The notes beneath the pieces are model-generated. The model ran no database searches. It was not told the origin of the DNA and saw nothing but the letters and a program-made list of their open reading frames with translations. 64,000 nt of DNA from Alphaproteobacteria bacterium (GTDB taxonomy: Bacteria > Pseudomonadota > Alphaproteobacteria > Rickettsiales > UBA8987), in NCBI GenBank assembly GCA_030429625.1, contig JAUIFA010000001.1:97306-161305 (forward strand), given 5' to 3'. Positions 1,709 to 62,858 of this stretch are shown here, one piece after another. Both the position numbers and the translations under genes were made by a program. Within the stretch, counting starts at the first letter, position 1. Each line of letters begins with the position of its first letter.

Positions 1709-1848
1709 CGATATACTGTAGCTATGGTATACTCAGTCACGCTATCTATATAATTTCTAGACAATTTTAAACATTTATATTATACCTTTAACCTGATATG
1801 AATTTTACTCGTGAAGAGACCCATTAAGAACTACGTGTGTTTATATAT

Positions 1849-24731: not shown

Positions 24732-25457
24732 TTACAATTGTACCGTTTTTGCTAAGGTTAGGATATAAATATTTTCCACCCCTTCTTTTTTGAGTATTTT
24801 GCTGCATTCGTTGAGCGTTGAACCGGTGGTCACTACATCGTCTACCAGTAAAACTGACGTACCAGGAATCACATCGGCATATTTGTTATTTATGGCAAAA
24901 CAGCCTTTGACATTTTCCTTGCGCTTTTTTGCGCTAAGGCTGGCTTGTGGCGGAGTATGTTTGGTTCTTTTTAACATGTCTGGTACAAATTTAGCGTTAC
25001 AGTCTTTGCTGATCTGTTTTGCCAAGAGAGCAGATTGATTGAATTTTCGTTGCAGCAATCGTTTTTTATGAATGGGGACAGGAATAATATAATCCACCTC
25101 GTCCACATTGGCTCGGTTAGCATTGACCATTAATTTTGCCAGATAAGATGCAACCAGAGTGTTGTCGCCATATTTAAATCGGGTAATAAGTTTTGAACTA
25201 TGTTCGTCATAAATAATGGCAGAGGAGGATTGGTTAAATATGGGTGGGGCGGCGGTGCATTGGGCACAAAGCGGCGAATCTTCATCAATATATTCTAGCG
25301 GAAAGGAACAGATACGGCAGGCATTAGAATTCAGAAAGCGAATATTGCCCCAGCAGACATGGCAAAGATTTCCGTAATCTTTTATGACGGTAGCACAGCC
25401 GACACAGCGTGGTGGAAAGAGAATGTCAGAGAGTATTTCTAGCGGTTTTCTTAGCAT
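24732..25457 (-). CDS. ComF-family phosphoribosyltransferase-like protein
   Basis: 241 aa. The N-terminus has a Cys-rich zinc-finger pattern (CVGC..CHVC..CRIC..CAQC). The PRT motif is VLLVDDVVTTGSTL. Confidence 0.8.
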   Translation of the reverse strand: MLRKPLEILSDILFPPRCVGCATVIKDYGNLCHVCWGNIRFLNSNACRICSFPLEYIDEDSPLCAQCTAAPPIFNQSSSAIIYDEHSSKLITRFKYGDNTLVASYLAKLMVNANRANVDEVDYIIPVPIHKKRLLQRKFNQSALLAKQISKDCNAKFVPDMLKRTKHTPPQASLSAKKRKENVKGCFAINNKYADVIPGTSVLLVDDVVTTGSTLNECSKILKKEGVENIYILTLAKTVQL

Positions 25458-26304
25458 TTTTTACAACATGGTAAGTGGCATATAAAGTGCTGATCATGAT
25501 GAAGGCGGTGCCTATAAGTGTCCATGTATCAATGATTTCATCAAACACGACATAACCGATAATAGCAATAAAAATGATACGAGTAAAATCATATGGTGTT
25601 AAAAGAGTCATGTCTGCATTGGCCACCGCATTGCCTAAAGAAATCTGTGCCACCGCCACGCTCATCCCCAACCCTAAACAAAGCGGCAAATGTTCCAATG
25701 TTGGGTTGTGCCAGCTCCATAATGCGCCGGGTAGTGTCACTGGAATGGTAAGCAACAAACTATAAAAGGCAATAAAAACAGGGTTTAGTTTTTTGGTCAT
25801 CATTTTAAGGATAGAATTGACTGTTGCCCAGATAATGGCCGAAGCCACGGCGCATAAACTGTACGCATTAAAGGCCTCAGTTCCCGGGCGCAATACCACC
25901 AGCATGCCTATGAAACCCAGCCCCAAAGCAAGCCAGCGTTTTCCATCACTGGCTTCTTTAAAAATCACAATACCGATAATTGATGCGATGATGGGCGACA
26001 TAAAGGTGATGGAGGTAGCCACCGCAATGGGAATATGTGCCAGTGCGGTATAGAACAAGGCCAAACCAATGTAACTTAAACAGGTGCGGAACAGCAAAAC
26101 CGGAAGATGTTGTTTTTGCAAAAGTGGCGGGCGGTGCTTCAACAGCCACGGAATAAAAAACGGTAAGGCAGAAATTGCACGCAGGAAATTGATCTGCAGG
26201 GCGCTGAAATCTGTGGTCAGTAAACGAGCAAAAACCGACATGATACAGATGGCCAGACAGAAAACCAACATCCACAGTATGCCAACGGTTTGGGTACTAT
26301 TCAT
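25426..26304 (-). CDS. EamA/DMT-family transporter (paralog 1 of 4)
   Basis: Ten-TM pattern. The ATG at 26304 (MNSTQTVGILWML) overlaps the upstream paralog's stop by 8 nt (ATGAATAG). The ORF-track start at 26391 is an upstream extension. Confidence 0.8.
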   Translation of the reverse strand: MNSTQTVGILWMLVFCLAICIMSVFARLLTTDFSALQINFLRAISALPFFIPWLLKHRPPLLQKQHLPVLLFRTCLSYIGLALFYTALAHIPIAVATSITFMSPIIASIIGIVIFKEASDGKRWLALGLGFIGMLVVLRPGTEAFNAYSLCAVASAIIWATVNSILKMMTKKLNPVFIAFYSLLLTIPVTLPGALWSWHNPTLEHLPLCLGLGMSVAVAQISLGNAVANADMTLLTPYDFTRIIFIAIIGYVVFDEIIDTWTLIGTAFIMISTLYATYHVVKNAKKTARNTL

Positions 26305-27202
26305 ATTGACCAACTTCTGCCGATTTTGCATGATACAGTGCGTAAAGTACGCTTGAGAGAATAATGATTCCCCCAGCAATAGTCCACACATCCACTATTT
26401 CATCAAAAAAGAAATAGGCAAAGACTGAGGTGTATATTAGGGTGGAAAAACTGATAGGAAGGACCACAGTAATGGGGGCTTTAGAAAAGGCCTTGGTTAC
26501 GGCATATTGTTGGCCAAACACAAAAACCCCCATCAACAAACATAATTTCCATTGATAGAGGGTGGGCTCAAGCCACACGTAAGTTGCCAAGGGCAATGCA
26601 AGTAAGCCGGTTAAAAACACCATATAGAACGTGATGGTGGAAGGGTTTTGGTTGGCAGTCAGCCGTTTGATTAAAATACCGCATGTGGCAAAACAACTGC
26701 AAGCAATGGCAATGAGTATGGTTGCCAAATACACATGACCCCGATTGTTTCCTGCTAGGCTAGAATCGTCTATGCCCGGGTGGATGACTGTCAGTACGCC
26801 AATAAGTCCAGCAACAAAGGCAATTTTTCGGTGGATGCTACTGTGCTCACGTAAGATAACCACTGCCGCGGTATATAAAAATAAAGGTGTCATATAAGAC
26901 AAAGCCGTGTGAATAGGTAAGGGGATAAGTGAAATAGCATAAAATGACAAAGACCAGCCCACACATTCTAAAACAGCGCGTAGCACATAGGCTTTATAGT
27001 GAGCAGTTTGTAGCACAATTTTTTTCTTCATTAAATAGGGCAAGAAAAGTGCCGTAGCAAAGACATTGCTGAAGAAAACAATTTGAAATGGATGCATATG
27101 ACTTTCGGTTAGAAAGCGGATGATAACAAAATTACATGCACCCAATAAGGTCATCACCACCATCCAGAACACACCGTGAGAGATATCGCTATAATGCTTC
27201 AT
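26297..27202 (-). CDS. EamA/DMT-family transporter (paralog 2 of 4)
   Basis: 301 aa, about 10 TM segments, similar to its neighbours. Overlaps the upstream paralog by 14 nt. Confidence 0.8.
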   Translation of the reverse strand: MKHYSDISHGVFWMVVMTLLGACNFVIIRFLTESHMHPFQIVFFSNVFATALFLPYLMKKKIVLQTAHYKAYVLRAVLECVGWSLSFYAISLIPLPIHTALSYMTPLFLYTAAVVILREHSSIHRKIAFVAGLIGVLTVIHPGIDDSSLAGNNRGHVYLATILIAIACSCFATCGILIKRLTANQNPSTITFYMVFLTGLLALPLATYVWLEPTLYQWKLCLLMGVFVFGQQYAVTKAFSKAPITVVLPISFSTLIYTSVFAYFFFDEIVDVWTIAGGIIILSSVLYALYHAKSAEVGQYE

Positions 27203-28073
27203 GCGTGCCTTTTAACCGCTTTGATTCACCGCGCATAGCAAAAACTGCTCCCACAAGAATAATGATTGAACCAATGACGGTCATCATTGTGGTTTTTTCC
27301 TCCAAGAAGATCGCACCCAAAATGACCACAAACAGTAGACGGGTAAACTGAAACGGCATCACAATCACCGCTTCGGTATATTCGTAGGCTTTAGACATGG
27401 AATATAGCGCAATATTCCAACACACCGCCACCAGAATTGCCCACAATAATTGGGTGTTGGTTGGCATCTGCCAATAGAAAAAAGCAATGGGCATGGAAAT
27501 TGCTCCCATAAACAGTTTGGTATAAAGAGAAATGGTATTGGCACTGTCCGTACGAGTGAGCATTTTGACGCTGATATGCGCCCCTCCATAAAGTGCCGCG
27601 CCGGTCAGAACAGCCAAAGATGCTGCATTAAAATGGACACTGCCAGGCTGAATGACCACTAAGGCACCGACAAATCCTATGGCTAACGCAAAGATACGAA
27701 CAAAAGTGGCTTGTTCTTTAAAACATAAAAGGGCAATGATTACCCCAAACAAAGGAGAAGTGAAAAAGATAGCCGATACGTCGGCCATGGTCATCTGGGT
27801 GAGCCCATAAACAAAAAGAATGTAAGAACTTGTCCCTGTGATGCCGCGCAGTAAATAGGTTTTCCAGCGAGTGGTTTTTGGCAAGGTAAAGCCAGAACGC
27901 TGTAGCCAAGAGGAACTCATAATCAGGGCAAATAAATGCACCATAGCACACACCATATAAGGGTTTATCCCTTCGGCAGCTTTACGTGAAGCCAGAGTAA
28001 TAATGGCCATCATAAAGCAGTGAATTACCATCCAAATGATGCCTTGCAGGCTGCTATGTAAATGTTTGATCAC
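27189..28073 (-). CDS. EamA/DMT-family transporter (paralog 3 of 4)
   Basis: 294 aa. LQGIIWMV and VMPFQFTRLLF match paralog 4 (LQAIIWMV, VMPFEFTALIF). Confidence 0.8.
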   Translation of the reverse strand: MIKHLHSSLQGIIWMVIHCFMMAIITLASRKAAEGINPYMVCAMVHLFALIMSSSWLQRSGFTLPKTTRWKTYLLRGITGTSSYILFVYGLTQMTMADVSAIFFTSPLFGVIIALLCFKEQATFVRIFALAIGFVGALVVIQPGSVHFNAASLAVLTGAALYGGAHISVKMLTRTDSANTISLYTKLFMGAISMPIAFFYWQMPTNTQLLWAILVAVCWNIALYSMSKAYEYTEAVIVMPFQFTRLLFVVILGAIFLEEKTTMMTVIGSIIILVGAVFAMRGESKRLKGTHEAL

Positions 28074-28938
28074 GACGTTTCATTTCCTTATGCAGGGCAA
28101 TAGAAGTTCCGGATAATACTATAATAGCACCTATAATAGTCCATTTATTTATAATTTCATCAAAGATAAAATAGGCCAAGAATGTAGTAAAGATCAGGGC
28201 GGTAAATTCGAACGGCATCACTACCGCAAGATCTACTTTTCTAAAGGCGTTAGCAATGGCGATGAATAAGAAGTTAGACACTTGTGCGGCAAGGATTAGC
28301 CAGAGAACATCATTAAGGCTGGGTGTTTGCCAATAATAAACCATAAAAGGAATACAAAAAAAGAACATAAACAGCCAAGTAAAGAACACGGTGGTGATAT
28401 TATCCTCGTCTACAATAATTTTTTTATAGAAGATTACCGATACGGCATAAAGGAAATTTGCGGCCAATGATGCAATGGCACCAATGTGGAAGTCATCCGT
28501 ACCGGGCCGGATGATGATCATTGCCCCGACAAATCCAATAAAGAGGGCAACAAGCTGTGTATTATTCAGTTTTTCTTTTAGAAAGATGACCGCTAGAAGG
28601 ACGGTAAATAATGGGGCAGTATAGTCAAGAGCTACGGCTTGAGTCAGCGGAATAACTGAAATACCATAGACCCATAAAAACATCGATAGCATTCCCGCAA
28701 TAGCACGGTAGTTGTGCAATTTAGCTATTTTTGTACGCGGGAAGGAAAAATGTCCTCTGTCTTTGATAACAATCCACAACAAGATAAGCACGATGGCAAA
28801 TAAATTACGCAGACTCACAATCACATAAGGATTGAGTGTTTCAGACAAATGGCGGATGATGGCGCTTAAGAGTGAAAACCAGAAACAGCTAATGACCATC
28901 CAAATAATGGCTTGTAAGTTGTTCGAGAGCTTATGCAT
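28054..28938 (-). CDS. EamA/DMT-family transporter (paralog 4 of 4)
   Basis: 294 aa, about 10 TM segments. Overlaps exoD by 8 nt and paralog 3 by 20 nt. Confidence 0.8.
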   Translation of the reverse strand: MHKLSNNLQAIIWMVISCFWFSLLSAIIRHLSETLNPYVIVSLRNLFAIVLILLWIVIKDRGHFSFPRTKIAKLHNYRAIAGMLSMFLWVYGISVIPLTQAVALDYTAPLFTVLLAVIFLKEKLNNTQLVALFIGFVGAMIIIRPGTDDFHIGAIASLAANFLYAVSVIFYKKIIVDEDNITTVFFTWLFMFFFCIPFMVYYWQTPSLNDVLWLILAAQVSNFLFIAIANAFRKVDLAVVMPFEFTALIFTTFLAYFIFDEIINKWTIIGAIIVLSGTSIALHKEMKRRDQTFT

Positions 28939-31603: not shown

Positions 31604-32020
31604 ATGATGCAAAGCTGTACCGTTACATTGTCGTTTTCTGCGGCTAAAAGATTGCCGGATTTTGATGGTAACTGCAAACATGTTCATGGCTATGGTCATA
31701 AAATAGAAGTAACCTTTGCTCCAAAAGGTTCGGATGGAGATTTGGTGGTTGATTTTTATAAGGTCAAGAATGTGCTGGGGCAATGGATAGACGGGCATTG
31801 GGATCACACGATTTTGTTGCATGAAAAGGATAAATCTTTAGGAAATTTAATCGCTCAACATACCGGTCAGACCCCCTTTTATTTTGATACGAGTCCTACG
31901 GCAGAAAACCTTGCTAAATTTTTATGCACACAGATCTGTCCAGAGTTATTGCCTCAGGTGATATGCATCAAAGTTAGAGTCTACGATAATCCGGAAGTGT
32001 GGGCGGAATTCTCTGTTTAA
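31604..32020 (+). CDS. queD: 6-carboxy-5,6,7,8-tetrahydropterin synthase
   Basis: 138 aa. FSAAKRLP..C..VHGYGHKIEVTF and DHTILL match the PTPS/QueD pattern. Confidence 0.75.
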   Translation: MMQSCTVTLSFSAAKRLPDFDGNCKHVHGYGHKIEVTFAPKGSDGDLVVDFYKVKNVLGQWIDGHWDHTILLHEKDKSLGNLIAQHTGQTPFYFDTSPTAENLAKFLCTQICPELLPQVICIKVRVYDNPEVWAEFSV

Positions 32021-32358
32021 TTAAAAGCAAACATATTTTGCATAATGTCACAAATTTCCTGAGCTTTTATTTGGTTTAAGGTAGTGACTTTATTAAGCAA
32101 ACGCTTTTTATCAATAGTGCGCATTTGATCCAACGCCAGCTGATATTGCCCGTATTCAATGTTGATAGGCACTCGAAACGGCGCAGCACGGCCAATGTGA
32201 CGTACCGGAGCAACCGTGACGGTTTTAAGCTGATTGTTTAGCTCATTGGGGGAAATGACAACGCACGGTTCAGGGCGGCGAATCTCGGTTGAATCCAGAG
32301 AAGTAACCGACACCATAAATACATCAAAACGCTCAATGGGGATAGACATATTACACAT
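32017..32358 (-). CDS. MazF/PemK-family toxin
   Basis: 113 aa. FDVFMV..EIRRPEPCVVISP..TVTVAPV and DQMRTIDKKRL fit the PemK-like pattern. The alternative ATG at 32349 overlaps the antitoxin stop. Confidence 0.75.
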   Translation of the reverse strand: MCNMSIPIERFDVFMVSVTSLDSTEIRRPEPCVVISPNELNNQLKTVTVAPVRHIGRAAPFRVPINIEYGQYQLALDQMRTIDKKRLLNKVTTLNQIKAQEICDIMQNMFAFN

Positions 32359-32587
32359 CCTCCTCGTTATTGATATCGTCAGGAATATGCAGCTGTTCTT
32401 TTTGGGTTAGCATCAGTTGCTTGGCAGCCTCCTCCCAGTTTCTTCGGGTCTGAGTGACCGGGGTGATAACCAAAGATTTGCCTTTAACCTTCATCTCAAC
32501 CATGTCAGATATTCCGCACTCTTTAAGTACTTTAGATGGAATCCGAACACCTTTTGAGTTGCCGATGGCGATGACTTTTGCTTTCAT
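32351..32587 (-). CDS. AbrB/MazE/SpoVT-family antitoxin
   Basis: 78 aa. MKAKVIAIGNSKGVRIPSKVLKECGI is a swapped-hairpin AbrB-type N-terminus and the tail is acidic. The gene lies immediately upstream of the toxin. Confidence 0.7.
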   Translation of the reverse strand: MKAKVIAIGNSKGVRIPSKVLKECGISDMVEMKVKGKSLVITPVTQTRRNWEEAAKQLMLTQKEQLHIPDDINNEEDV

Positions 32588-36366: not shown

Positions 36367-36789
36367 ATGCAAATAATTGAATGTAAAACGAAAGAACAGA
36401 TAAAAGAGACTTATAAAGTCGCCAGTCAGCATTATAATCTCGGTGAAGCCGAATATATGGCAAATATGGAAGAGATGATGCAGGCAGGGGATTATCGTTG
36501 CATTGCTGCGGTAAATGACCAAGGTGAATATCTTTCTATATTAGGATTTCGGGTGGGCAGACGTCTTTATTGTGGCAAGTTCTTCCATCTGGATAATTTG
36601 ATTGTCGGCAAAGATCATCGTCGCGAAGGTCTGGCCGAAAAGATGGTAGATTGGGCGCGCGATGAAGCCAGAAGGTTGGGGTGTAACTCGATCCTTGCCG
36701 ATACGTATGTGGAAAATTATCCCGCGCATAAGCTCTTTATGAAAGAGGGTCTACACATCCGTGGCTATCACATGCGCGAGATTCTTTAA
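36367..36789 (+). CDS. GNAT-family N-acetyltransferase
   Basis: 140 aa. LIVGKDHRREGLAEKMVDWARDEARRLGC is a motif A-like Q/RxxGxG/A region. Confidence 0.7.
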   Translation: MQIIECKTKEQIKETYKVASQHYNLGEAEYMANMEEMMQAGDYRCIAAVNDQGEYLSILGFRVGRRLYCGKFFHLDNLIVGKDHRREGLAEKMVDWARDEARRLGCNSILADTYVENYPAHKLFMKEGLHIRGYHMREIL

Positions 36790-36810
36790 GTCGTGCCTTT
36801 GTCGGGCAGG

Positions 36811-37542
36811 CTAAAAACCAGCAGGAATATCAGGCTTAAAGGGAATTGAAGGTAATTCAATAGCTGGGGCGATTTCTTTAAAGAAATCATCATTCATATT
36901 CTCAAATAAATATTCTAAATCCTTATCCCGCTTATACTGATACTTCCCATTGTCAAAGTCCATTAGTTCCGTAACCATTGCTTTCCAATCGTGGTTTAAA
37001 ACAGTATTAAAGAATCGAGGGGTCGACCTATCCCAATTGAGACTGTACTGGAGAGCAACAGAGGCAACGATTGTTTGAATGTGTGGTGACAGGTCTCCGA
37101 ACTGTTTTGCGCCCTTAGGAATGTTTGCATTGTAAATATTTTCTATGGTTTCTCCAAGATATTTAAAAAACAACTTATCTATAAGATTATATTCTGATTT
37201 TGTTAATGTAAGCGGTTCAATATAACTATATATTTGGGCCAATTGTCCTTTTTTACCTAAATAGGGCTTCAGCTTTTCTTTAATGTCTTCGGGAATGCCC
37301 ATTTTATCAAGACTGCTCTCATTATATTTACCCAAATCAAATAGATCAGCTATTACCACACCCGCATCCACGGTTAGGTTTCCAGTATAGTTATAGATAG
37401 TTACGCCCGCATACTGTCCTCTGGCTTTAATGTGTAACAATTGACTGCTTTTATCATCGGAAATGGTTTGGGCGTTAATGCTACTACTAATCAAAAAAAC
37501 CAGCAGGAATAGCAGGCTTGGAAGGGATATGTGCAATTTCAT
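36811..37542 (-). CDS. Secreted pesticin-C-terminal-like (T4-lysozyme-fold) muramidase homolog, possibly non-canonical
   Basis: Signal peptide MKLHISLPSLLFLLVFLISSSINA. GVVIADLFDLG, LKPYLGKKG, FGDLSPHIQTIVASVALQYS, TPRFF, DWKAMVTEL and KRDKDLEYL match my recollection of the pesticin-like muramidase family. There is no Glu between the signal peptide and the G-V-x-I-A motif. Confidence 0.55.
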   Translation of the reverse strand: MKLHISLPSLLFLLVFLISSSINAQTISDDKSSQLLHIKARGQYAGVTIYNYTGNLTVDAGVVIADLFDLGKYNESSLDKMGIPEDIKEKLKPYLGKKGQLAQIYSYIEPLTLTKSEYNLIDKLFFKYLGETIENIYNANIPKGAKQFGDLSPHIQTIVASVALQYSLNWDRSTPRFFNTVLNHDWKAMVTELMDFDNGKYQYKRDKDLEYLFENMNDDFFKEIAPAIELPSIPFKPDIPAGF

Positions 37543-37544
37543 TT

Positions 37545-37583
37545 TATAAATATTGTTTGTCCCTGAAGATTAGGGTAATTATT
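37545..37583. repeat. Anchor repeat, degenerate copy 1 (34/39 identical to copy 2)
   Basis: tataaatattgtttGtcccTgaAGattAgggtaattatt. It lies between the muramidase-like gene ATG (37542) and the ATG at 37588. Confidence 0.75.
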
Positions 37584-37587
37584 TTTC

Positions 37588-38073
37588 ATGCGTACAAAAG
37601 ATTTTATAAAATCATTATCATATAGTAAAATAGTATTTTTATTACTCTTTACGGCTCCTGCTGTTGCATCGGCATTTATAATACAAGAACAATTGGATGA
37701 TTCAGATTTAAACGAACGCATAATACCGTTGCTTATGCTTATTTCCTATCTATTCTTTATAATCTCAATGCTAAATTATTTTATATACAGGAAAAGCGGG
37801 AGAATATCGGCTGTTGTGCCAGTTATAATAAACTTTATTGCGATAGGCAGCTTTGGAATTATGCTCAACATGCCCGCTGTTTTCATTATTCCATTCTTAT
37901 TTGTTGCTGGAGTGTGGGAGATTTTTGAGAAGAAATTTTTAGTTGCTGCGGTTTATATTTTGTTGTTCCTTGCAACCATAACCCCTTTTGTATTTGTATG
38001 GCAGACTGGACTTGAAATGGAGAAACGTTCTGAGGGGATGAAAGACCAAGTTCAAGACCAATCAGAACACTAA
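37588..38073 (+). CDS. Multi-pass membrane protein, immunity-like candidate (paralogous N-terminus with 38288..38923)
   Basis: 161 aa with about five hydrophobic segments. MRTKDFIKSLSYSKIVFLLLF parallels MKIKDCIKSLTFSEIILYLLL in the neighbour. Degenerate anchor copy 1 lies directly upstream. Confidence 0.5.
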   Translation: MRTKDFIKSLSYSKIVFLLLFTAPAVASAFIIQEQLDDSDLNERIIPLLMLISYLFFIISMLNYFIYRKSGRISAVVPVIINFIAIGSFGIMLNMPAVFIIPFLFVAGVWEIFEKKFLVAAVYILLFLATITPFVFVWQTGLEMEKRSEGMKDQVQDQSEH

Positions 38074-38278
38074 TTGCATCGTCTTTCTCACCTTTTATTT
38101 TCTTCCACATGCCCCCATTTAAAGTTTCTGATATTATACCAACAAACGCAACACCTGCATTTACAAGACTCAACCATTCATAGGTAAAACCACAGGCTAA
38201 ACCTACAAACCCATAATGTATGTTGCCCCAAATATCGGTGTTATATAAATATTGTTTATCCCCGAGTATTGGGGTAAT
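38042..38278 (-). pseudogene. Start-less orphan cassette encoding the C-terminal half of the toxin domain
   Basis: My reverse-strand translation is ITPILGDKQYLYNTDIWGNIHYGFVGLACGFTYEWLSLVNAG...KDDAISVLIGLELGL. It aligns to residues 186-~275 of the 327-aa protein. There is no in-frame ATG/GTG/TTG before 38173 and no internal stop. Confidence 0.6.
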
Positions 38279-38279
38279 T
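38243..38279. repeat. Anchor repeat copy 2 (exact 37-mer)
   Basis: atataaatattgtttatccccgagtattggggtaatt is identical to 39296-39332. It heads the orphan cassette on the minus strand and ends 8 nt before the ATG at 38288 on the plus strand. Confidence 0.9.
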
Positions 38280-38287
38280 ATTGTGTT

Positions 38288-38923
38288 ATGAAGATAAAAG
38301 ATTGTATAAAATCATTAACTTTTTCTGAGATAATTCTCTATCTGCTGTTAGCTACTATACTGCCACTATTAGAATGGAACGGAGTTTCATTTGTAAGTAT
38401 TATCGTGACAATATTGGTACTAATATACACTATCATATTTGCCCCAATATATTTTATAACATACGTGTGGAGGAAAAAGTTCAAGGCATTACTTCCTTTG
38501 TTTAAAGGAATTCTAATGCTTCTTTACATGTTGTCGGTTGTTGCCACTGTGTACCGGCACTATGAAGAGAAAGTTTTTAACGAAAAATATAATGATTATA
38601 TGGAAGTGGTAAATATATTTAAATCAGGATCATGGCCATATGAAGTGATTGAAACTACTGCCGAAGAAAAATCTAGGGGGCATTATGATAAGTATGTTTT
38701 GCCTACTAAATACCATCATCTAGCAAAACCTTACTGGGTTAATAATCCTAAAAGAAAACTGCATGTTATTGAAGGTAATATAGCGAATCCAAATAGTGAA
38801 ATAGAGTTTTCTGTTGAATCTCATTACGATGAAGCATGGGTGGTTTATACTCCTATTAAAGGGTGTGGTATATATCAACCATGCAAAAAAGACCACTGGT
38901 ACTTATTGCACACTCCTAGATAG
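38288..38923 (+). CDS. Membrane protein (3-4 TM segments plus a ~110-aa soluble C-terminal domain), immunity-like candidate
   Basis: The ATG at 38288 gives MKIKDCIKSL. The ORF-track TTG start at 38252 lies inside the 37-nt anchor. The 3' end overlaps the convergent toxin gene by 21 nt. Confidence 0.5.
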   Translation: MKIKDCIKSLTFSEIILYLLLATILPLLEWNGVSFVSIIVTILVLIYTIIFAPIYFITYVWRKKFKALLPLFKGILMLLYMLSVVATVYRHYEEKVFNEKYNDYMEVVNIFKSGSWPYEVIETTAEEKSRGHYDKYVLPTKYHHLAKPYWVNNPKRKLHVIEGNIANPNSEIEFSVESHYDEAWVVYTPIKGCGIYQPCKKDHWYLLHTPR

Positions 38924-39886
38924 CAATTTTGCGATATTTGAACTTTTGACCTTTAAGTTTTGAGGGCGTAATTTTACAGACCCAGCACTCCATAATGCTC
39001 TGGTGGTGTATATCGCTATATGTAATGCTTGCTTTGATAGTGAATTGCTATTTTGCTCCCATAGACCAATTCCTGCTAATACACTAATTTCATCATCTTT
39101 TGCAGCAATGGCATGCCCTTTCACTTTACCAAATATATTGCCAAAATCTATCTCTCCCTTATAAAGATCTGCAGCTATGCCAATACCTGAACTAACAATC
39201 TCTACCGCAGTATTACCTAGAAGTAAGAATTCTTTTGTAAACCCACAAGCCAGCCCAACATAACCAAAATGAATATTTGACCAAATGTCATAATAATATA
39301 AATATTGTTTATCCCCGAGTATTGGGGTAATTGGTACAAAATCTCCATTCTTTTTCCATGCAGGAATAAACAATGCTTTAAATTTATCATTCTTCTTATG
39401 ATCCCACTTGCCTCCAGACTTAACTAATTCTATAAACTTTAGATTTGCCTGTGTAAAATAAGATAGAGACTCTGCTTCTAACAGTGCTCGTCTTTTATAA
39501 TCAATCTCACCTATAGATTTTATTATCAAATTGTCAGATTGAGCATTCAATTCCCTTATTTCCTGTGCTTCGGGGCCATTAGCATTTTTGTTCATTTCTG
39601 CGGTCATAAAATTTAGGACACGATCGTATGCGTCGTAATTAAACAGATATTCGTGTTTTAACTCTTCATTTTCATTCACGGTTTTTGCCTGATTATTAGA
39701 TAGGCGTTCTTTTCTTATGGGGTTAAGAAAATCGGCAAAAAGATTGCGATTGCCTTCAAGCGATGCCTGTTTTTTCTCAGGCGTGATCTCAGGGAAAAGA
39801 TGCGCCACTTGTTCGAAAGCAAAGGCAAGAGATTCTTGCGCCAGCCCGATTGTTATGGGTCTAATGATTTCATTTGGTTTTGGCAT
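38903..39886 (-). CDS. Polymorphic-toxin-like protein: unknown N-terminal ~160 aa plus a C-terminal Ntox44-like (polymorphic toxin type 44) domain
   Basis: 327 aa. GGKWDHKKN...DIWSNIHFGYVGLACGF...AKDDEISVLAGIGLW resembles my recollection of the type-44 toxin pattern (WDxK, NIH[FY]G[FY]VG, DD). No signal peptide is present. The ATG lies 2 nt after the tail-tube gene stop. Confidence 0.5.
   Translation of the reverse strand: MPKPNEIIRPITIGLAQESLAFAFEQVAHLFPEITPEKKQASLEGNRNLFADFLNPIRKERLSNNQAKTVNENEELKHEYLFNYDAYDRVLNFMTAEMNKNANGPEAQEIRELNAQSDNLIIKSIGEIDYKRRALLEAESLSYFTQANLKFIELVKSGGKWDHKKNDKFKALFIPAWKKNGDFVPITPILGDKQYLYYYDIWSNIHFGYVGLACGFTKEFLLLGNTAVEIVSSGIGIAADLYKGEIDFGNIFGKVKGHAIAAKDDEISVLAGIGLWEQNSNSLSKQALHIAIYTTRALWSAGSVKLRPQNLKVKSSNIAKLLSRSVQ
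39296..39332. repeat. Anchor repeat copy 3 (exact 37-mer) inside the 327-aa toxin-like gene
   Basis: On the minus strand it encodes ITPILGDKQYLY, residues 186-197 of the 327-aa protein. Confidence 0.9.
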
Positions 39887-39888
39887 GA

Positions 39889-40302
39889 TTATGCCTCCGT
39901 GTAGAGGATTTCGCCGCTACTTTCGAGAGAAATACTGTAGCTTTCAGCATTCTTAATGGCGCCGGAGCGATTATAATCCATCACCTTAAATGTACCAGAG
40001 AGCACGTCACCGCTACCAAAGTGAATCTCAAAACTTGTCAATTTATTGGTGAATGCGGCAATACGTAATTGGTTTTCAGTCGTTGATCCCATATACCTGC
40101 CGCTGGCATCAATGGTGATAGAGCGTTGTCCCTCATTATCAATGATATCACGCCATTGACCAGACAAAATGTTAGTTGAATCAATTATTTTTGTACTAAA
40201 ACTAAAATCCATGTTTAGTAATCCGCCGACCAGAGAGAAACTCTCCGGATCGCCACCATCGCCAATATGTAATGTTACCTCAGAACCTTTTTGTGCCGCC
40301 AT
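39889..40302 (-). CDS. Phage/GTA major tail (tube) protein homolog, TP901-1 family, solitary
   Basis: 137 aa. The pattern MAAQKGSEV...GGL...WRDII...ASGRYMG...F...G.F.V..Y...G...AESYSISLESSG and the length match my recollection of the RcGTA g9-type tube protein. Confidence 0.65.
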   Translation of the reverse strand: MAAQKGSEVTLHIGDGGDPESFSLVGGLLNMDFSFSTKIIDSTNILSGQWRDIIDNEGQRSITIDASGRYMGSTTENQLRIAAFTNKLTSFEIHFGSGDVLSGTFKVMDYNRSGAIKNAESYSISLESSGEILYTEA

Positions 40303-40365
40303 GCTGCCCTCCGTTGTTTTTTCTCAGGCAGGATAGGGTCAAATGTGAAAAGGCGGAAGGGGGCT

Positions 40366-49770: not shown

Positions 49771-50768
49771 TGGCGGAGTGCTACCTCATTATTGGTTTGG
49801 GAAGTATAGGCAGGCGGCATTTGCGCAATGTAAGAGCGTTGCGGCCAGAGGCAAAAATTGTACTTCTGAGGCGCGAAGAATCCCTTGCGGCAGACGAAGA
49901 TAAATTGGCCGATCATATTGTGACCAACATCAAATCGGCCATTGCACATCGGCCCATTGCCGCCATTATTTGTAATCCTGCGCCGTTTCATCTTTCGGTG
50001 GCCATGGATCTGGCTGAGGCTGGGATTCATCTTCTTATCGAAAAGCCGATTTCGCATAATTTGGCAAATGTTGATGGGCTGATTCATTATTGTAAAAAGA
50101 AAAAGCTAAAACTGCAAACCGCGTATGTGCTGCGCTATCATCCTTTAATCAAAATGCTAAAGAAAAAGTTCGACGAAAAACTAATAGGTCAGCCGATCAG
50201 TGCGGTGGTCGAATGTGGGCAATATCTACCGCAATGGCGACCAGAGCAGGACTATCGCCAATCGGTTTCGGCCAAGGCTGGTCTGGGGGGAGGGGTATTG
50301 TTGGAGCTTAGCCATGAGTTTGATTATTTACGTTATTTATTTGGCGAGGTACAATCGCTTTCTGCTCATTGTTTCAACAGTCACAGCCTTGAGATTGATG
50401 TGGAAGATGTGGCCGACCTAACTCTCAGATTTGCCAATACGTTTACCGCCAATGTGCATTTGGATTTTTTACAAACCAAGCTGCACAGAAGTTGTAAAAT
50501 CATGGGCGATAAGGGCATGTTGTACCTTGATTTAGCAGAGCAAACCCTCGATTTTTATGACAAAGAGGGGCAAAAAACCCCGCTTTCCCATCTTAAAGAC
50601 TATGACAGAAATACGATGTTTATTGCTGAGCTGGAAGATTTTTTAAACACGGTTGCTCAGAATTGCGACCCTACGATAACCGGATATGATGGGCTTCAAG
50701 CGGTTCGAATTGTTGAGGCCGCCAAACAATCCTCCAAAAATAAGAAGGAGGTCACTCTTGATGGTTGA
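49770..50768 (+). CDS. Gfo/Idh/MocA-family oxidoreductase
   Basis: 332 aa. The N-terminal Rossmann region is IIGLGSIGRRHLRN. EKP is present and the C-terminal alpha/beta domain follows. Confidence 0.75.
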   Translation: MAECYLIIGLGSIGRRHLRNVRALRPEAKIVLLRREESLAADEDKLADHIVTNIKSAIAHRPIAAIICNPAPFHLSVAMDLAEAGIHLLIEKPISHNLANVDGLIHYCKKKKLKLQTAYVLRYHPLIKMLKKKFDEKLIGQPISAVVECGQYLPQWRPEQDYRQSVSAKAGLGGGVLLELSHEFDYLRYLFGEVQSLSAHCFNSHSLEIDVEDVADLTLRFANTFTANVHLDFLQTKLHRSCKIMGDKGMLYLDLAEQTLDFYDKEGQKTPLSHLKDYDRNTMFIAELEDFLNTVAQNCDPTITGYDGLQAVRIVEAAKQSSKNKKEVTLDG

Positions 50769-51471
50769 TAAGAAGGCGATAGGATTTATTTTTGCTCGTG
50801 GCGGCTCCAAAGGGGTAAAGGGCAAAAATATAAAGTTGCTTAACGGCAAACCGTTAATCGCTTATTCCATTGAGTGCGCGTTAAGCTGCCCTTCCATCAG
50901 CAGGGTGATCGTTTCCACAGACAGTCAGGAGATTGTCGATATCGCAAAAAAATACGGTGCGGAAGTGCCCTTTATGCGCCCAAGCCAACTGGCGCAGGAC
51001 GATTCTCCTGAATGGCTCGCGTGGCAGCATGCCGTGCAATTTCTACAAGATCAGGGGCAAGAGTGTGATGTTTTTGTCAGTCTTCCGGCAACGTCTCCCT
51101 TGCGCAACGTAGAAGATGTGGAAGCCACCATTGCTTTGCTGGATGAGAAAACAGACGTGGTGGTCACCTGCACTCCGGCCAAACGTCACCCCAGCTTTAA
51201 CATGCTAAAAAAGAACGATGACGGTTATGTGAGTATAGTCATGCCGGTGGAGAAGGAAATTCATAACCGACAACAGGCCTCGGAGCTGTTCGATATGACC
51301 ACGGTAGCTTATGTCACCCGTCCGCAATATATTATCAATCACCAATCCTTGCTTGAAACCGGCGCGGTAAAAGCGCATAGTGTGCCGGAGGAAAGGGCGT
51401 TGGACATTGATACGATGTTTGATTTTAAAATAGCGCAACTTTTGATGGAAGCAAGCGATGCTGGAAAATAA
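50761..51471 (+). CDS. Acylneuraminate/nonulosonate cytidylyltransferase (NeuA/LegF-like)
   Basis: The ATG at 50761 gives MVDKKAIGFIFARGGSKGVKGKNIKLLNGKPLIAYSI. It overlaps the upstream stop by 8 nt. Confidence 0.85.
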   Translation: MVDKKAIGFIFARGGSKGVKGKNIKLLNGKPLIAYSIECALSCPSISRVIVSTDSQEIVDIAKKYGAEVPFMRPSQLAQDDSPEWLAWQHAVQFLQDQGQECDVFVSLPATSPLRNVEDVEATIALLDEKTDVVVTCTPAKRHPSFNMLKKNDDGYVSIVMPVEKEIHNRQQASELFDMTTVAYVTRPQYIINHQSLLETGAVKAHSVPEERALDIDTMFDFKIAQLLMEASDAGK

Positions 51472-52231
51472 AATAATTGTGATCACCGGTGGTGCCGGCC
51501 TCTTAGGTTCGGCGTTTGTGAAGGCGGTTCTTGCCAATAAGGGTAAGGCAATCATCGCGGATATCAATAGTGATAAAGGACAGGAATTAGAACAGAATTT
51601 GCACAAAGAATACGGCAAAGAATCCTGTGCCTATCGGAAGCTTGATGTAACGTCGAAAGACAGTGTGCAGCAGCTTATTGATCAGACAGAGGCAAAATAT
51701 GGTCATATTGATGCGTTGGTCAATGCGGCCTATGCACGCAATGCTTCCTTTGGAAAGGATTTCTTTGAGGTGGAACATGCCGATTTTTGCGACAATCTTT
51801 GCCTCCAGCTTGGCGGATATTTCTTAACCTCCCAACAATTTGCCACCTACTTTAAAGACAAGGGTAAGGGCGGAAACATCATCAATATCGCTTCTATTTA
51901 TGGGGTTGTTGCCCCGAAATTTGAGATTTACGAAGGCACAGAAATGACCTGCCCGATTGAGTATACGGCGGTGAAGTCGGCGTTGATTATGATGACCAGA
52001 ACCATGGCCAAGCGCTTTAAGGGCATGAATATTCGGGTCAATTCCATCAGTCCGGGTGGGATTCTAGACGGGCAAGACCCTAAGTTCTTAGCTGCCTACA
52101 AAGCACAATGCATCAGCAAAGGCATGCTCGATGTGAAGGACATTGAAGGCTGTTTGGTGTTCTTGCTTTCGGACCAATCACAATACATCAATGGTCAAAA
52201 CATAGTGGTGGACGACGGTTTCACGCTGTAA
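51458..52231 (+). CDS. Short-chain dehydrogenase/reductase (PtmA-like)
   Basis: 257 aa. Contains ITGGAGLLGSAF, NAAY and a YxxxK context (YTAVKSAL). Confidence 0.85.
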   Translation: MLENKIIVITGGAGLLGSAFVKAVLANKGKAIIADINSDKGQELEQNLHKEYGKESCAYRKLDVTSKDSVQQLIDQTEAKYGHIDALVNAAYARNASFGKDFFEVEHADFCDNLCLQLGGYFLTSQQFATYFKDKGKGGNIINIASIYGVVAPKFEIYEGTEMTCPIEYTAVKSALIMMTRTMAKRFKGMNIRVNSISPGGILDGQDPKFLAAYKAQCISKGMLDVKDIEGCLVFLLSDQSQYINGQNIVVDDGFTL

Positions 52232-53498
52232 GTAATGTTGCGATGGCGCGGTTTATGTTTTCTTTCATATCTTCTTCCGCAACGCCATATCCCGCGTCGT
52301 AATAGCGGTAATGTTCCTGCCATACGGGGTCTGTATAAAAAGCGTTGATTACCTCAAGATTAAGGGCATTCACATCTTCAATCTCCGGCACGATCTTATT
52401 CTTCACAAAGCCGTTTACGTCGTGTGAATATCCGTCCAGTCCGGCATAATACACCACCGGAACACCCTGTTTAAGCACTTCAAGATGCACGCTGCTGTTG
52501 CCGATAATAGCCAGATCCACCTTGCTGACATCCTCGTCGAGCCTAGTTCCTTTTGGTGAGATAGTAATACCACTCTTGCCTGCCAGCGTGGCAAAATCAG
52601 GCCGTACCAACTCCACCGGATGCGGACGAATTACGATAGCGGCCTCCTCGAATTTCTTTCTTATTTGGTGGAGGATCTTCTCAAGATTGGTCATATTGGT
52701 TTGCGCGGTGAGAAAAATCCCCACCGTCTTTATAGGACGATTGAGCTTTAAGGCAGTGGTTTTCCCCTCAACGCCGGAATAGACAATTTGTGTGCTGAAA
52801 TGTTCGTTATATTGACTGAGAATGTCCGAGGCATATTTTCCCGAAAGAATTGCCAGATCATAGTGCATATTCGAAGTGCTGTAATCTTCTGTTATATTAG
52901 CGTGGGGAACAAGGATAACAGGAATATTCATGTGTTTAGCGGCACAAATCAGTGCCATACTGTCCGAAGCGTAGGTGCTGGTGACCAACACGGCGCGTGG
53001 CGGACATTGCTCCATAATATGCAGAAATTTTATGTAATAGCCAAGATAGGCCGCAATCAGACAGGCAGGGATAAAATCCATTTGCCTGAAATGCATCATC
53101 AGCCGAAATATTTGGGTTATATTTTTATAGCGTAGCCCTATTTTATAGAAGTGAATGACGTTGGGCAGATACAAAATATTTTTATTAGAAATGGAGCTGT
53201 TTTCTAAAGTGTAATCGGCCAGAGAGTTTTTGATATAGTCCACTTTACTGTGCTCATTGGCCGTGGTGGAACAGGCTAAGATATCCCCACCTCCCTTCGC
53301 CTTCAAGTTAAGGATGGATTTCACAACATACAGTACCAGAATAAAGGTATAGAGCTTACTGCCTTTGAAGGATTCTATCCACTTTATGGCAAAACGCAGC
53401 ACCGGTTTCTTGGCCAATATTTCCGCGAACACCTTGATAGCAACCTCATGTGTTCTTACAGATTCTATATACCGTATCGCTTTTTTAATGTTTTTCAT
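52221..53498 (-). CDS. Hypothetical protein, possible GT-B/capsule-synthesis-like glycosyl (ulosonic acid) transferase
   Basis: 425 aa. The C-terminal IGNSSVHLEVLKQGVPVVYY loosely resembles nucleotide-sugar-binding halves of GT-B or KpsS-type enzymes. Evidence is weak. Confidence 0.3.
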   Translation of the reverse strand: MKNIKKAIRYIESVRTHEVAIKVFAEILAKKPVLRFAIKWIESFKGSKLYTFILVLYVVKSILNLKAKGGGDILACSTTANEHSKVDYIKNSLADYTLENSSISNKNILYLPNVIHFYKIGLRYKNITQIFRLMMHFRQMDFIPACLIAAYLGYYIKFLHIMEQCPPRAVLVTSTYASDSMALICAAKHMNIPVILVPHANITEDYSTSNMHYDLAILSGKYASDILSQYNEHFSTQIVYSGVEGKTTALKLNRPIKTVGIFLTAQTNMTNLEKILHQIRKKFEEAAIVIRPHPVELVRPDFATLAGKSGITISPKGTRLDEDVSKVDLAIIGNSSVHLEVLKQGVPVVYYAGLDGYSHDVNGFVKNKIVPEIEDVNALNLEVINAFYTDPVWQEHYRYYDAGYGVAEEDMKENINRAIATLLTA

Positions 53499-53506
53499 AA
53501 CTGGCT

Positions 53507-54121
53507 TTATAATTTAAGAAAATTTTTTATAATCTGTAACCCGGCAGCTCCGCTTTTCTCCGGATGAAATTGGGTGCCGTAAACATTATCTTTCCCAACA
53601 ACTGCCGTTACGTTTATGGCATCATAATCGTAATACGCCAAAAGATCTTCTTTGTTATTAGGGTTGGCAGAATAAGAATGGGTAAAATAAAATCTATCTG
53701 CTTGGGAAATGTGATGAAACAAATCATTATTGGTCATTATCTTCAATGATTTCCAGCCCACAAAAGGAATTTTATATTTTACACTATCGCTAATTTTGCA
53801 GACTCGTCCTCCAATTAAGCTGAGTCCTTTATTTAAACCAAATTCCTCGCTTTCATCCAGTAACATTTGCATGCCAACGCAGATGCCCAGATAGGGCCTT
53901 CTGGTGGCAGAAAATTCTAACAAGACATTCTTCAGACTTTTCTGTGCTAGGGTGGAGACGCAATCTTTAAACGCGCCAACGCCGGGGACAACTAGTCTTT
54001 GGGCGCAGAGTATATCGTTCGGGTTATCACTCACCAGCACATCGGCACCACAATGCTCAAACGCTCTTTTGACACTCAGTATGTTACCGATACCGTAATC
54101 TACTATTACAACTTTTTTCAT
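53507..54121 (-). CDS. HisH-like glutamine amidotransferase subunit (glycan acetamidino pathway paralog)
   Basis: 204 aa. Contains VVPGVGAF, GICVGMQML (catalytic Cys) and QFHPEKS. Confidence 0.88.
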   Translation of the reverse strand: MKKVVIVDYGIGNILSVKRAFEHCGADVLVSDNPNDILCAQRLVVPGVGAFKDCVSTLAQKSLKNVLLEFSATRRPYLGICVGMQMLLDESEEFGLNKGLSLIGGRVCKISDSVKYKIPFVGWKSLKIMTNNDLFHHISQADRFYFTHSYSANPNNKEDLLAYYDYDAINVTAVVGKDNVYGTQFHPEKSGAAGLQIIKNFLKL

Positions 54122-54128
54122 CTATTTC

Positions 54129-54911
54129 TTAAATTGTTATATTGTCCACACAGCGTATTTCAAAATTATTCTGGTTTATTGCCCATCGATGTATTTCGGA
54201 CAATTGTAGCGTATCGTAATGCAAAACATGCGCCATAGCAATGGCATCCACATGGCTTTGTGTAAGAGCCTCTTCTATGTCGTGTAAGGAGCCAATGCCT
54301 CCGCTGGCAATTATAGGGATTTGTACAACAGATGAAACCGCTTCTAAAAGCTCTATATCCATGCCTTTGGCCGTTCCTTCTTTATCAACGGAAGTCAATA
54401 ATATTTCTCCTGCTCCAAGAGACACGGCTATTTTTGCCCAGTGGATAACATCCATTGCGGTTTTTTCCCGCCCATTATCGTAATACACTTCCCATTTGTT
54501 ATAATCGGTTTTCTTAGCTTCTATGGATAGAACCATACATTGGGAACCAAAACGTTGGGAAACCTCCCTGATAAGCTCAGGATTTTTTACCGCCGCAGTG
54601 TTAATGGCCACTTTGTCAGCGCCATGGCTTAACGCGGCAGCCACATCCTCAACCGACCGGATGCCACCACCAACGGTGATGGGGATAAAAATATCTTTGG
54701 TAGCATCTTTAACAATATCTAAGAGTGAATTGCGTTCATAAAGCGAGGCAACGCAGTCCATATAGAGTATTTCATCAATACCTTGCGCATAATATTTTCT
54801 GGCAAAGTCATTCGGTTTGCCAAGTTTTCTTAACCCTTCAAGTTGGATCCCTTTTATTAAATTGTCACCCTTAACATCAAGACGGGCAATAAACCGTATG
54901 TTCCTTGTCAT
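54129..54911 (-). CDS. HisF-like cyclase subunit (glycan acetamidino pathway paralog)
   Basis: The ATG at 54911 gives MTRNIRFIARLDVKGDNLIKG. Later motifs are ITVGGGIRS, GADKVAINTAA and ASGGIG. Confidence 0.88.
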   Translation of the reverse strand: MTRNIRFIARLDVKGDNLIKGIQLEGLRKLGKPNDFARKYYAQGIDEILYMDCVASLYERNSLLDIVKDATKDIFIPITVGGGIRSVEDVAAALSHGADKVAINTAAVKNPELIREVSQRFGSQCMVLSIEAKKTDYNKWEVYYDNGREKTAMDVIHWAKIAVSLGAGEILLTSVDKEGTAKGMDIELLEAVSSVVQIPIIASGGIGSLHDIEEALTQSHVDAIAMAHVLHYDTLQLSEIHRWAINQNNFEIRCVDNITI

Positions 54912-54912
54912 A

Positions 54913-56181: not shown

Positions 56182-56234
56182 GATTCTTAATTCCTTTTTT
56201 AATACAAGTGTCTAACAAAGTATTTCTTAATGTA

Positions 56235-56906
56235 TTACGGTACATACTCAAATTTCATTCCATTTATTTCTATATATGCTCCGGGCGCATTAGGAAATGT
56301 AACGGCTTTCACTCTTCTCTTCATTTCTTCAGCAGACATAGTTAAATTTAGTTTGCACAGTTCGTTGAGCTCCTTTCTTTGATATGGTGGTCTTTCCCAT
56401 TTTTCACCGCAAGGAGTGAGCTCTTGGCCACTTATAATGATATCCATTATGTCATAAAACATATTCGAAATGTTTTCATAGCATCGTTGGGTAAGGGATA
56501 AAACACTATCGGCTTCATATATAGGAAACCGTTTAACCATTATAATGTCTCCGGTATCAACCTTTTGGTTCATCTGATGACAGGTAACCCCAAACTCTTT
56601 TTCTCCATTATAAATAGCAAAATTTGTACAGCCAATACCGGGATATTTAGGTGATCCAGGATGAAAATTTATACTATGTATTGATGCGTTATCTAATAAT
56701 TCTTTGGGGACAATCCATGGGCAGAGGTAAGATATTATATAATCCCCTTTCCATTGCATTAATTTATTTGGGAAAGGTTCACCTCTGCTGTTGAGGGATA
56801 TAGTACTATTAGGAAAATGATTTTTCACAAATTCAGAGGCTTTTAAACAGAGAGGATCTGCATCTTTTCCTAAAAATAATATTGATAAATCTTTTCTTGG
56901 TTTCAT
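56235..56906 (-). CDS. Formyltransferase-fold protein (sugar N-formyltransferase candidate)
   Basis: The ATG at 56906 gives MKPRKDLSILFLGKD. SINFHPGSPKYPG resembles the HxSLLPxxRG region of formyltransferases, and a Fmt-like GDYIISY pattern is present. Confidence 0.6.
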   Translation of the reverse strand: MKPRKDLSILFLGKDADPLCLKASEFVKNHFPNSTISLNSRGEPFPNKLMQWKGDYIISYLCPWIVPKELLDNASIHSINFHPGSPKYPGIGCTNFAIYNGEKEFGVTCHQMNQKVDTGDIIMVKRFPIYEADSVLSLTQRCYENISNMFYDIMDIIISGQELTPCGEKWERPPYQRKELNELCKLNLTMSAEEMKRRVKAVTFPNAPGAYIEINGMKFEYVP

Positions 56907-56907
56907 A

Positions 56908-57984: not shown

Positions 57985-57985
57985 G

Positions 57986-60711: not shown

Positions 60712-60713
60712 CC

Positions 60714-62850: not shown

Positions 62851-62858
62851 ATTCTTCC

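Follow-up and report, generated by a model that had tools for sequence, protein, structure and literature searches.

A gene transfer agent-type tail tube gene at the head of a predicted polymorphic toxin-immunity array in an alphaproteobacterium

Gene transfer agents (GTAs) are regarded as DNA-sharing devices whose selective benefit is still debated, and in type VI secretion systems (T6SS) gene pairs of the tube protein Hcp and an effector are established. The tail channel of RcGTA, the Rhodobacter capsulatus GTA, holds a trimer of the tape-measure protein (g11) and one molecule of a peptidoglycan peptidase (g14), and these inner-tail proteins are ejected with the DNA into the periplasm, not the cytoplasm, of the recipient (PMC7296036). 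Among the domains of polymorphic toxins, Ntox44 was catalogued as all-alpha with DxK, GNxxxG and DxxxD motifs, and was listed for export by type II, type VI and type VII secretion systems with no assigned immunity family (PMC3482391). Here we describe a locus in a 64,000-nt stretch of an Alphaproteobacteria bacterium (Rickettsiales, UBA8987; assembly GCA_030429625.1, contig JAUIFA010000001.1, positions 97,306 to 161,305), which we call the window, in which a GTA-type tail tube gene stands directly before an Ntox44 toxin gene. By comparing related loci we show that it reads as a polymorphic toxin-immunity array, with the tube gene and approximately the first 85 to 115 residues of the toxin as its predicted constant “head.” The conserved pairing suggests, without proving delivery, that a phage-like tail delivers the toxin. 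The original prediction, a reading of the window made beforehand from its letters alone, knew of no such GTA-type pairing; in the literature we likewise found no description of such a link between a polymorphic toxin and a GTA-type or other tail tube gene.

The tube-toxin pair in the window and its relatives

The 137-aa protein of the pair is confirmed as an RcGTA g9-like tube with a tube fold. It matches Pfam PF06199 (Phage_tail_2) with 77 bits against a cutoff of 23.8 (E 1.8e-21, profile positions 1-130 of 132), and also PHROG 1407, major tail protein; its residues 1-135 align with residues 1-135 of the RcGTA tube Rcc01691 (g9, PDB 6TBA) at E 1.5e-11 in phmmer, and a profile of 10 tube sequences matches the same 6TBA protein at E 2.7e-36. 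The top Foldseek matches of its AlphaFold2 model (pLDDT 69) are the RcGTA chains of 6TBA and 6TOA (E 3e-6), followed by the Listeria monocin tube (E ~3e-5), lambda gpV and, lower down, Hcp (E ~5e-4); a DSR2-tail tube complex is also among the matches. The NCBIfam equivalog of the TP901-1 family, TIGR02126 (cutoff 37 bits), gave no match to the window tube at E <= 0.01, and the sole NCBIfam match, NF047353, reached 19 bits, under that model's cutoff of 27; a related tube from a locus that we call L007 passes TIGR02126 with 43.3 bits. We therefore place the window tube in the wider PF06199 family, as a member that has diverged.

The two genes are arranged like an operon, with the layout of one translation unit. 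On the minus strand the tube stop codon TAA (39891-39889) is followed by “tc” (39888-39887) and then by the toxin ATG (39886-39884), leaving a gap of 2 nt. The toxin's own GGAGG (39898-39894) lies within the last tube codons, 7 nt ahead of this ATG, and the tube gene has its Shine-Dalgarno sequence GGAGG at 40312-40308. Separately, a 20-nt direct repeat (18 of 20 positions identical) has one copy at 39768-39787, in the N-terminal coding region of the toxin (ITPEKKQ), and the other at 40315-40334, just ahead of the ribosome-binding site for the tube.

The toxin matches Pfam PF15607 (Ntox44) over residues 150-276 with 61.4 bits against a cutoff of 24 (E 1.2e-16), and the DxK and (G/S)NxxxG motifs of the family are present. 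The toxin module starts further upstream, near residue 85, because the domain already includes an EMNxNA motif (residues 97-102) that every aligned Ntox44 homolog shares without change. The AlphaFold2 model (mean pLDDT 77) has a confident, mostly helical core at residues 84-245 and 263-300, preceded by an N-terminal stretch of short helices predicted with low confidence; Foldseek found no relative of the model among solved (PDB) or viral (BFVD) structures. The protein has no hydrophobic segment, transmembrane (TM) segment or signal peptide, and outside Ntox44 it has no Pfam match at E <= 1, so no recognised trafficking domain. When residues 1-125 were searched exhaustively with phmmer against 1.84 billion representative proteins, only four matched, which puts the N-terminal region in just 2-4 of them; the viral contigs searched contained no relative of the toxin. 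We considered whether the N-terminus might be a tail-assembly chaperone (g10) or a tape measure (g11); hhalign of its alignment against g10 and g11 alignments made from the comparison loci described below gave probabilities of 0.1% and 0.2%. Later papers on Ntox44 repeat a predicted ribonuclease (RNase) activity, one calling the family poorly characterised, and the domain has been transferred into corals; we found neither a solved structure nor a tested activity for it in the literature.

The tube gene is “solitary” only within these 64 kb. Among window open reading frames (ORFs) of at least 110 aa, annotated with Pfam (from precomputed matches on matching contigs or by direct scans) and, for ORFs lacking a Pfam match, with PHROGs, we found no portal, capsid, terminase, tape-measure, hub, baseplate or fibre gene, and no T6SS or other secretion gene. 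The identifications of the original prediction all stand: the two ORFs and their 2-nt gap, which we read directly on the minus strand; the RcGTA g9-like tube, borne out by PF06199, the 6TBA alignment and Foldseek; the Ntox44 protein lacking a signal peptide; and the lack of portal, capsid, terminase, tape-measure or baseplate genes. It also holds that the 327-aa protein is no ordinary tail-assembly protein, given the hhalign result above. The prediction had placed the start of the toxin domain near residue 155, which the EMNxNA motif corrects to about 85.

We compared the pair with 85 further tube loci (80 distinct) from genomes, metagenomes and viral contigs, whose tube homologs share 27-40% identity. 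The g10 chaperone gene and/or the g11 tape-measure gene directly follows the tube gene in 57 of the 61 loci with at least 500 nt downstream, and the remaining four show either tail genes, chaperone-like or of other kinds, or an insertion ahead of g10. Tube relatives on viral contigs lie in ordinary clusters, and neither tblastn nor hidden Markov models found an Ntox44 gene in any of the 85. In the clade of the window tube, by contrast, g10 and g11 follow in none of three lineages, and a toxin gene and a membrane-protein gene lie within 1 kb in all three. The flanks differ in each lineage: tsaC and proS in the window, with tsaC upstream of the tube; an insertion sequence (IS) and a g8-like gene in a contig that we call L002; and an ACT-domain gene and putative panB in L007. 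These comparisons show that the tube-toxin linkage persists across three lineages with no other synteny in common; the tube has kept its toxin while losing otherwise almost invariant neighbours.

L002, a 3.9-kb metagenome contig, carries an IS fragment, a g8-like tail-terminator gene (Tail_completion_gp17) directly upstream of the tube gene, the tube gene (68% identity), a toxin gene and an immunity array. In a word-indexed search for other GTA genes of the lineage, the g8-like protein matched only itself. The L002 toxin, a 310-aa Ntox44 protein, starts 9 nt past the tube gene; beyond it lie a small convergent membrane-protein gene and then two more, each preceded by an orphan toxin 3'-end fragment. 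In one of these pairs the fragment copies the C-terminal end of the window toxin (SVKLRPKNLKVKSSNTAKLLSRS), and its partner is a homolog of the window gene at 38288 (42% identity over 192 aa, E 2e-50); in the other the fragment copies the C-terminal end of L002's own toxin, and its partner is a paralog of L002's first membrane protein. L007 carries a toxin gene, a convergent membrane-protein gene and an intact 137-aa tube gene (48% identity), flanked by the ACT-domain gene and the convergent putative panB (the latter from a by-eye reading of the translation). Its gene order, toxin-immunity-tube (1805-3523), is a circular permutation of the tube-toxin-immunity order of the window and L002; speculatively, this would fit a small unit moving via a circular intermediate. 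A toxin of the same subfamily at a further locus, L006, begins without a counterpart to the first ~55 residues of its homolog in the window; its C-terminal end is of the L002 type and is paired with a convergent 107-aa membrane protein of matching type (1914-3092).

Conservation of the pair is uneven along its length. Between the window and L002, the tubes differ with a nonsynonymous proportion pN of 0.20 and a synonymous proportion pS of 0.74, and across the tubes of the window, L002 and L007 there are 56 invariant positions; the tube gene is by this measure under purifying selection in its relatives, intact and not decaying. Toxin residues 18-114 are 67% identical to L002, a divergence equal to that of the tube (68%), and for these residues and the tube together the ranges are pN 0.20-0.23 and pS 0.71-0.74, with dS saturated; purifying selection thus acts on this part of the toxin too. 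Along the toxin, 56-80% of positions match L002 in residues 26-100, but only 16-40% do so in residues 226-327.

Cassettes, handles and candidate immunity genes

The composition of the locus breaks where its conservation does, at approximately toxin residue 115. The GC content at third codon positions (GC3) is 0.41 in the tube gene and 0.38 in toxin residues 1-114, and falls to 0.23-0.25 in toxin residues 115-327; in the two membrane-protein genes it is 0.29-0.32. A low-GC patch spans ~36800-39700, with GC 0.32-0.37 against 0.43-0.53 in the flanks. The foreign, exchangeable part therefore begins inside the toxin gene, at residue ~115, where GC3 drops, and the N-terminal region of the toxin, which matches the tube in composition and divergence, lies outside it. 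Composition shows that the tube and toxin N-terminus are the resident part of the locus and that the C-terminal cassettes are foreign.

The minus strand carries three cassettes, every one opening with a 42-nt handle (ITPILGDKQYLY) and facing a convergent plus-strand gene, which in two cases codes for a polytopic membrane protein. In the minus-strand direction the order is tube, toxin residues 1-185, handle 1 with cassette 1, handle 2 with an orphan cassette, and handle 3 with a lysozyme-like ORF (Table 1). A tblastn search of the window with the toxin finds a second copy of its residues 186-315 at 38278-37928 on the minus strand (46% identity), and this orphan begins exactly with ITPILGDKQYLY, identical to toxin residues 186-197. 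The 38288 gene overlaps the toxin gene by 21 nt; it probably starts with the ATG at 38288, although the ORF finder begins it at a TTG at 38252. The 161-aa gene at 37588 overlaps the orphan cassette by 188 nt (37886-38073), against 21 nt in the resident pair. The first codons of the 37588 and 38288 genes are homologous (repeat family D3).

The convergent membrane proteins are the likely candidate immunity proteins, as the original prediction had implied of the neighbouring membrane genes. All seven in the window and its relatives are polytopic, with 2-5 TM segments, and no toxin or orphan lacks a gene for one. Their type changes together with that of the toxin C-terminal end between the window, L002 and L006, as cognate toxin and immunity pairs behave. 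These comparisons show that the toxin C-terminal parts and the convergent membrane-protein genes are exchangeable cassettes with a common handle, which we propose is the recombination point for cassette swapping.

The handles also mark where assemblies break. In independent Logan assemblies of the same organism, one contig (L001) ends exactly at handle 1, and two (L001 and L005) break at approximately handles 1 and 2 (38283-39304). The short-read break at handle 1 is what a repeat would lead one to expect, and short-read assemblies consequently tend to lose or misjoin this toxin and immunity segment.

The third slot is less regular, and the membership of its 243-aa lysozyme-like protein (Pfam PF16754, E 1.5e-25; PHROG 24780) in the toxin system is uncertain. 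Its ORF starts exactly where the degenerate handle copy 3 ends and is bounded by 34-nt direct repeats (family D4; 36813-36846 and 37495-37528), which agree at 85% of positions. One frame of the 5' repeat codes for the signal peptide, and in the frame of the handle the repeat reads IPSKPAIPAGFF and then a stop, copying the C-terminal tail of the ORF (IPFKPDIPAGF). This slot could be a repeat-bounded cassette or a case of overprinting. The GNAT gene that faces it is probably just a flanking gene, with core-like composition (GC3 0.43).

Table 1. Features of the tube-toxin locus, in window coordinates
Feature	Coordinates	Strand	Description
GTA-type tail tube gene (RcGTA g9-like, TP901-1-type)	39889..40302	-	137 aa; Pfam, PHROG, PDB and fold matches
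Polymorphic toxin gene	38903..39886	-	327 aa, Ntox44; Pfam and direct sequence reading
Lineage-specific N-terminal region of toxin, residues 1 to ~84	39635..39886	-	Short helices, no known domain
Handle copy 1	39294..39335	-	Encodes ITPILGDKQYLY, toxin residues 185-198; repeat family D2
Candidate immunity gene for resident toxin	38288..38923	+	211 aa, 3 TM segments and C-terminal domain
Orphan toxin C-terminal cassette	37886..38278	-	No start codon; tblastn and frame translation; repeat families D1, D2
Handle copy 2	38241..38282	-	Opens orphan cassette
Candidate immunity gene for orphan cassette	37588..38073	+	161 aa, ~5 TM segments; converges on orphan
Handle copy 3, degenerate	37542..37583	-	Toxin frame ITLIFRDKQYL then stop; abuts ATG of next ORF
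Pesticin/T4-lysozyme-like muramidase gene	36811..37542	-	243 aa, Sec-type signal peptide; third cassette slot
GNAT acetyltransferase gene	36367..36789	+	Pfam PF00583; convergent with lysozyme-like ORF, where an immunity gene would sit

On neighbourhood and composition, too, most of the original prediction survives. The adjacency is not unique to this genome, since tube and toxin occur together in L002 and L007, and the tube gene is not decaying in relatives, being intact with pN 0.20 against pS 0.74 in L002. A toxin gene near the tube gene recurs in these two distant relatives, in contrast to the 80 distinct comparison loci, none of which carries Ntox44. The prediction's AT-rich patch exists, but does not take in the pair as a whole: it starts within the toxin and not at the tube.

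Elsewhere the window carries the housekeeping genes dnaE, ATP synthase, uvrC, proS, tsaC, lon and hupB. A 948-aa protein with many ankyrin repeats is encoded at 1837-4683; ankyrin-repeat proteins of this kind typify bacteria that are intracellular or live with a host. At 25426-28938 four EamA-family transporter paralogs stand in tandem and overlap at their ends, and a MazE-like/PemK-like toxin-antitoxin pair lies at 32017-32587 (Pfam matches on the matching contig L005). A nonulosonic-acid/polysaccharide cluster at 50686-63974 encodes NeuB, UDP-GlcNAc 2-epimerase, a DegT aminotransferase, a dehydratase, a cytidylyltransferase and a flippase, and includes large ORFs lacking Pfam or PHROG matches (52221-53498, 54913-56181 and 59140-60756).

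Proposed delivery by a GTA-derived tail and its alternatives

We tentatively suggest, from these comparisons of sequence, that the toxin and a GTA-derived tail are expressed together and that the tail carries the toxin into the periplasm of neighbouring cells. The toxin would be made together with the tube protein, and its N-terminal helical region (residues 1 to ~84, a candidate tube- or tail-association region) would dock to a GTA-derived non-contractile tail as an inner-tail passenger like RcGTA g11 and g14. Ejected into the periplasm of the neighbouring cell, it would attack the envelope there, and kin would be protected by polytopic inner-membrane proteins; the remaining tail parts would be encoded elsewhere in the genome. 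Periplasmic delivery fits because all candidate immunity proteins sit in the membrane and RcGTA ejects into the periplasm, and the muramidase in the third cassette slot loosely agrees with it as well. The membrane-embedded partners further argue that this Ntox44 subfamily may attack the envelope and not act as an RNase. A broader version of the proposal is more doubtful: that an Alphaproteobacteria lineage turned a GTA or tail into a toxin-injection device, with the Ntox44 toxin in place of or beside the tape measure and peptidase, and with cassettes and membrane immunity diversifying the weapon.

Several points weigh against tail delivery. Besides the tube gene we found no terminator or head gene in the window; the tube protein by itself cannot deliver anything; and a folded 37-kDa toxin could not fit the tube lumen unless extended. 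The RNase label, a prediction from Pfam and the literature, implies a cytoplasmic target. We infer the physical association of tube and toxin from gene linkage, and the three linked loci, a small sample, may stem from one ancestral insertion or arrangement. The toxin of L007 has an in-frame TGA (2072-2074) at the invariant Trp of KWDHK, which may reflect recoding, an error of sequencing or a nonsense mutation (code 11 gives normal readings for the genes beside it), and its gene order is unlike that of the window; its intact tube beside a TGA-bearing toxin, in another order, implies a tube kept for its own sake. The toxin and membrane-protein genes of L006 are flanked by rplI and dnaB, the 12.7 kb covered there contain no tube gene, and standalone Ntox44 proteins are numerous. 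The behaviour of L006, L007 and the standalone proteins favours a shared neighbourhood without a shared function, an explanation that we consider unlikely, if appreciable: the tube would be a GTA g9 left as a one-gene small cluster, as occurs where alphaproteobacterial genomes are reduced or rearranged, an Ntox44 island would have inserted downstream once in an ancestor and borrowed its promoter, and the toxin would exit otherwise or by lysis. GTA genes scattered in small clusters are indeed documented (PMC9254644), and the composition break marks the C-terminal cassettes as foreign. Coincidence sits poorly, however, with a tube that lost g10 and g11 (in the window g8 too) yet kept its toxin in three contexts, with a toxin N-terminal region that shares the tube's composition and divergence, with a toxin ribosome-binding site placed inside the tube gene, and with the lack of an alternative export signal in the toxin by Pfam and by our check for TM segments and signal peptides.

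Other readings give the tube a role without a GTA particle, or no role at all. It is improbable that the tube now works alone as a ring-shaped chaperone or carrier in the manner of Hcp, stabilising the toxin or handing it to another export machine. Hcp and siphophage tubes share a fold, with Hcp chains among the Foldseek matches; Hcp-effector pairs offer a precedent, and the other tail genes are absent from the window. Yet the window has no T6SS or other secretion gene that we could find, the g8-like terminator gene of L002 points to a real tail, L007 keeps an intact tube beside a disrupted toxin, and the match to RcGTA g9 is full-length and end to end. More improbable still is an intracellular toxin-antitoxin or abortive-infection module, in which the membrane protein would restrain the toxin in its producer and the tube homolog would serve as decoy or sensor for incoming phage: phage tubes are known to trigger some defence systems, as the DSR2 complex among the fold matches recalls, and the MazE/PemK genes show other toxin-antitoxin genes in the window, but PADLOC matches none of the six island proteins to a known anti-phage defence system, and orphan C-terminal cassettes with a common handle, together with orphan immunity arrays, are hallmarks of secreted polymorphic toxins. 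We give as little credence to a decaying relic, both genes being functionless leftovers of a dead prophage or GTA. The isolation of the tube gene in the window, its score under the TIGR02126 cutoff and the in-frame stop in the L007 toxin would suit such a relic; tube ORFs of 137 aa intact in three lineages (48-68% identity), a pN much lower than pS, the 56 invariant positions that the three tubes share, good ribosome-binding sites on both genes and a toxin N-terminal region conserved at 67% would not. Delivery by a GTA-derived tail remains the reading that we tentatively prefer.

Comparison with known systems

The closest known counterpart of the tube itself is RcGTA g9 (Rcc01691, PDB 6TBA), which has the same length and the same fold and aligns end to end, and the RcGTA tube lumen carries proteins that are ejected into the recipient periplasm, the route proposed here (PMC7296036). 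The g9 gene of RcGTA forms part of a head-tail cluster, with g10 and g11 next in order; in the window the tube is followed by the Ntox44 toxin, with no other structural gene in 64 kb. The window lacks the GTA cluster context of g8 upstream and g10/g11 downstream, and L002 has a g8-like gene upstream but a toxin downstream, so we do not class the system as a GTA.

The toxin side resembles the polymorphic toxins of contact-dependent inhibition (CDI) and Rhs systems (Zhang et al., 2012, PMC3482391). Shared with them are a constant N-terminal part with a variable, catalogued C-terminal toxin; adjacent protective genes (here candidate immunity genes only); orphan cassettes with a short conserved junction; and foreign cassette composition. 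The window differs in lacking the catalogued trafficking domains PAAR, VgrG, Hcp, LXG/WXG, TPS, MuF and PVC (PMC3482391), in having candidate immunity genes that are convergent and overlap the toxin 3' end instead of lying co-directionally downstream, and in having a separate tube gene as the constant partner. By its sequence, then, the locus has the defining features of polymorphic toxin systems except a recognised trafficking domain, its immunity being predicted.

In its working the locus would be most like three systems, and it is a member of none. T6SS Hcp-effector pairs and fusions likewise place a phage-tube-fold protein next to a small toxin lacking a signal peptide, with immunity genes nearby; the window tube, however, belongs to PF06199 and resembles Hcp at the level of the fold only, no T6SS genes accompany it in the window, and a GTA tail is non-contractile. 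MuF toxins of temperate phages are likewise linked to a structural part of the phage, presumed to travel with the particle and encoded beside their immunity genes, but they are fused to a head protein within a complete prophage and occur mostly in Firmicutes (Jamet et al., 2017, PMC5576092); the window toxin is a separate gene after a tail tube, with no MuF domain and no prophage genes in the window. The Listeria monocin, an F-type tailocin (tube MttP, PDB 8QHS/9J1J), shares a TP901-1-like tube and the principle of a domesticated tail, used for killing in the monocin. Its locus holds the whole tail and lysis genes, whereas the complete tail cluster of an F-type tailocin or extracellular contractile injection system (eCIS) is absent from the 64-kb window, which shows the tube gene only; killing here would reside in the cargo toxin. 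We know of no separate toxin cargo for monocin.

Conserved coupling of a GTA tube to a toxin would give GTA-type tails a second, antagonistic use, and the list of polymorphic toxin systems would gain a new predicted route of delivery. Even if tube and toxin were functionally unrelated, the locus would offer a clean and compact case of cassette swapping at a 42-nt junction, in an unusual convergent and overlapping toxin/immunity layout. Were a GTA or its tail indeed a device for injecting the toxin, the system would match, in non-contractile and GTA-derived form, the delivery of Hcp-effectors by T6SS and the payloads of eCIS.

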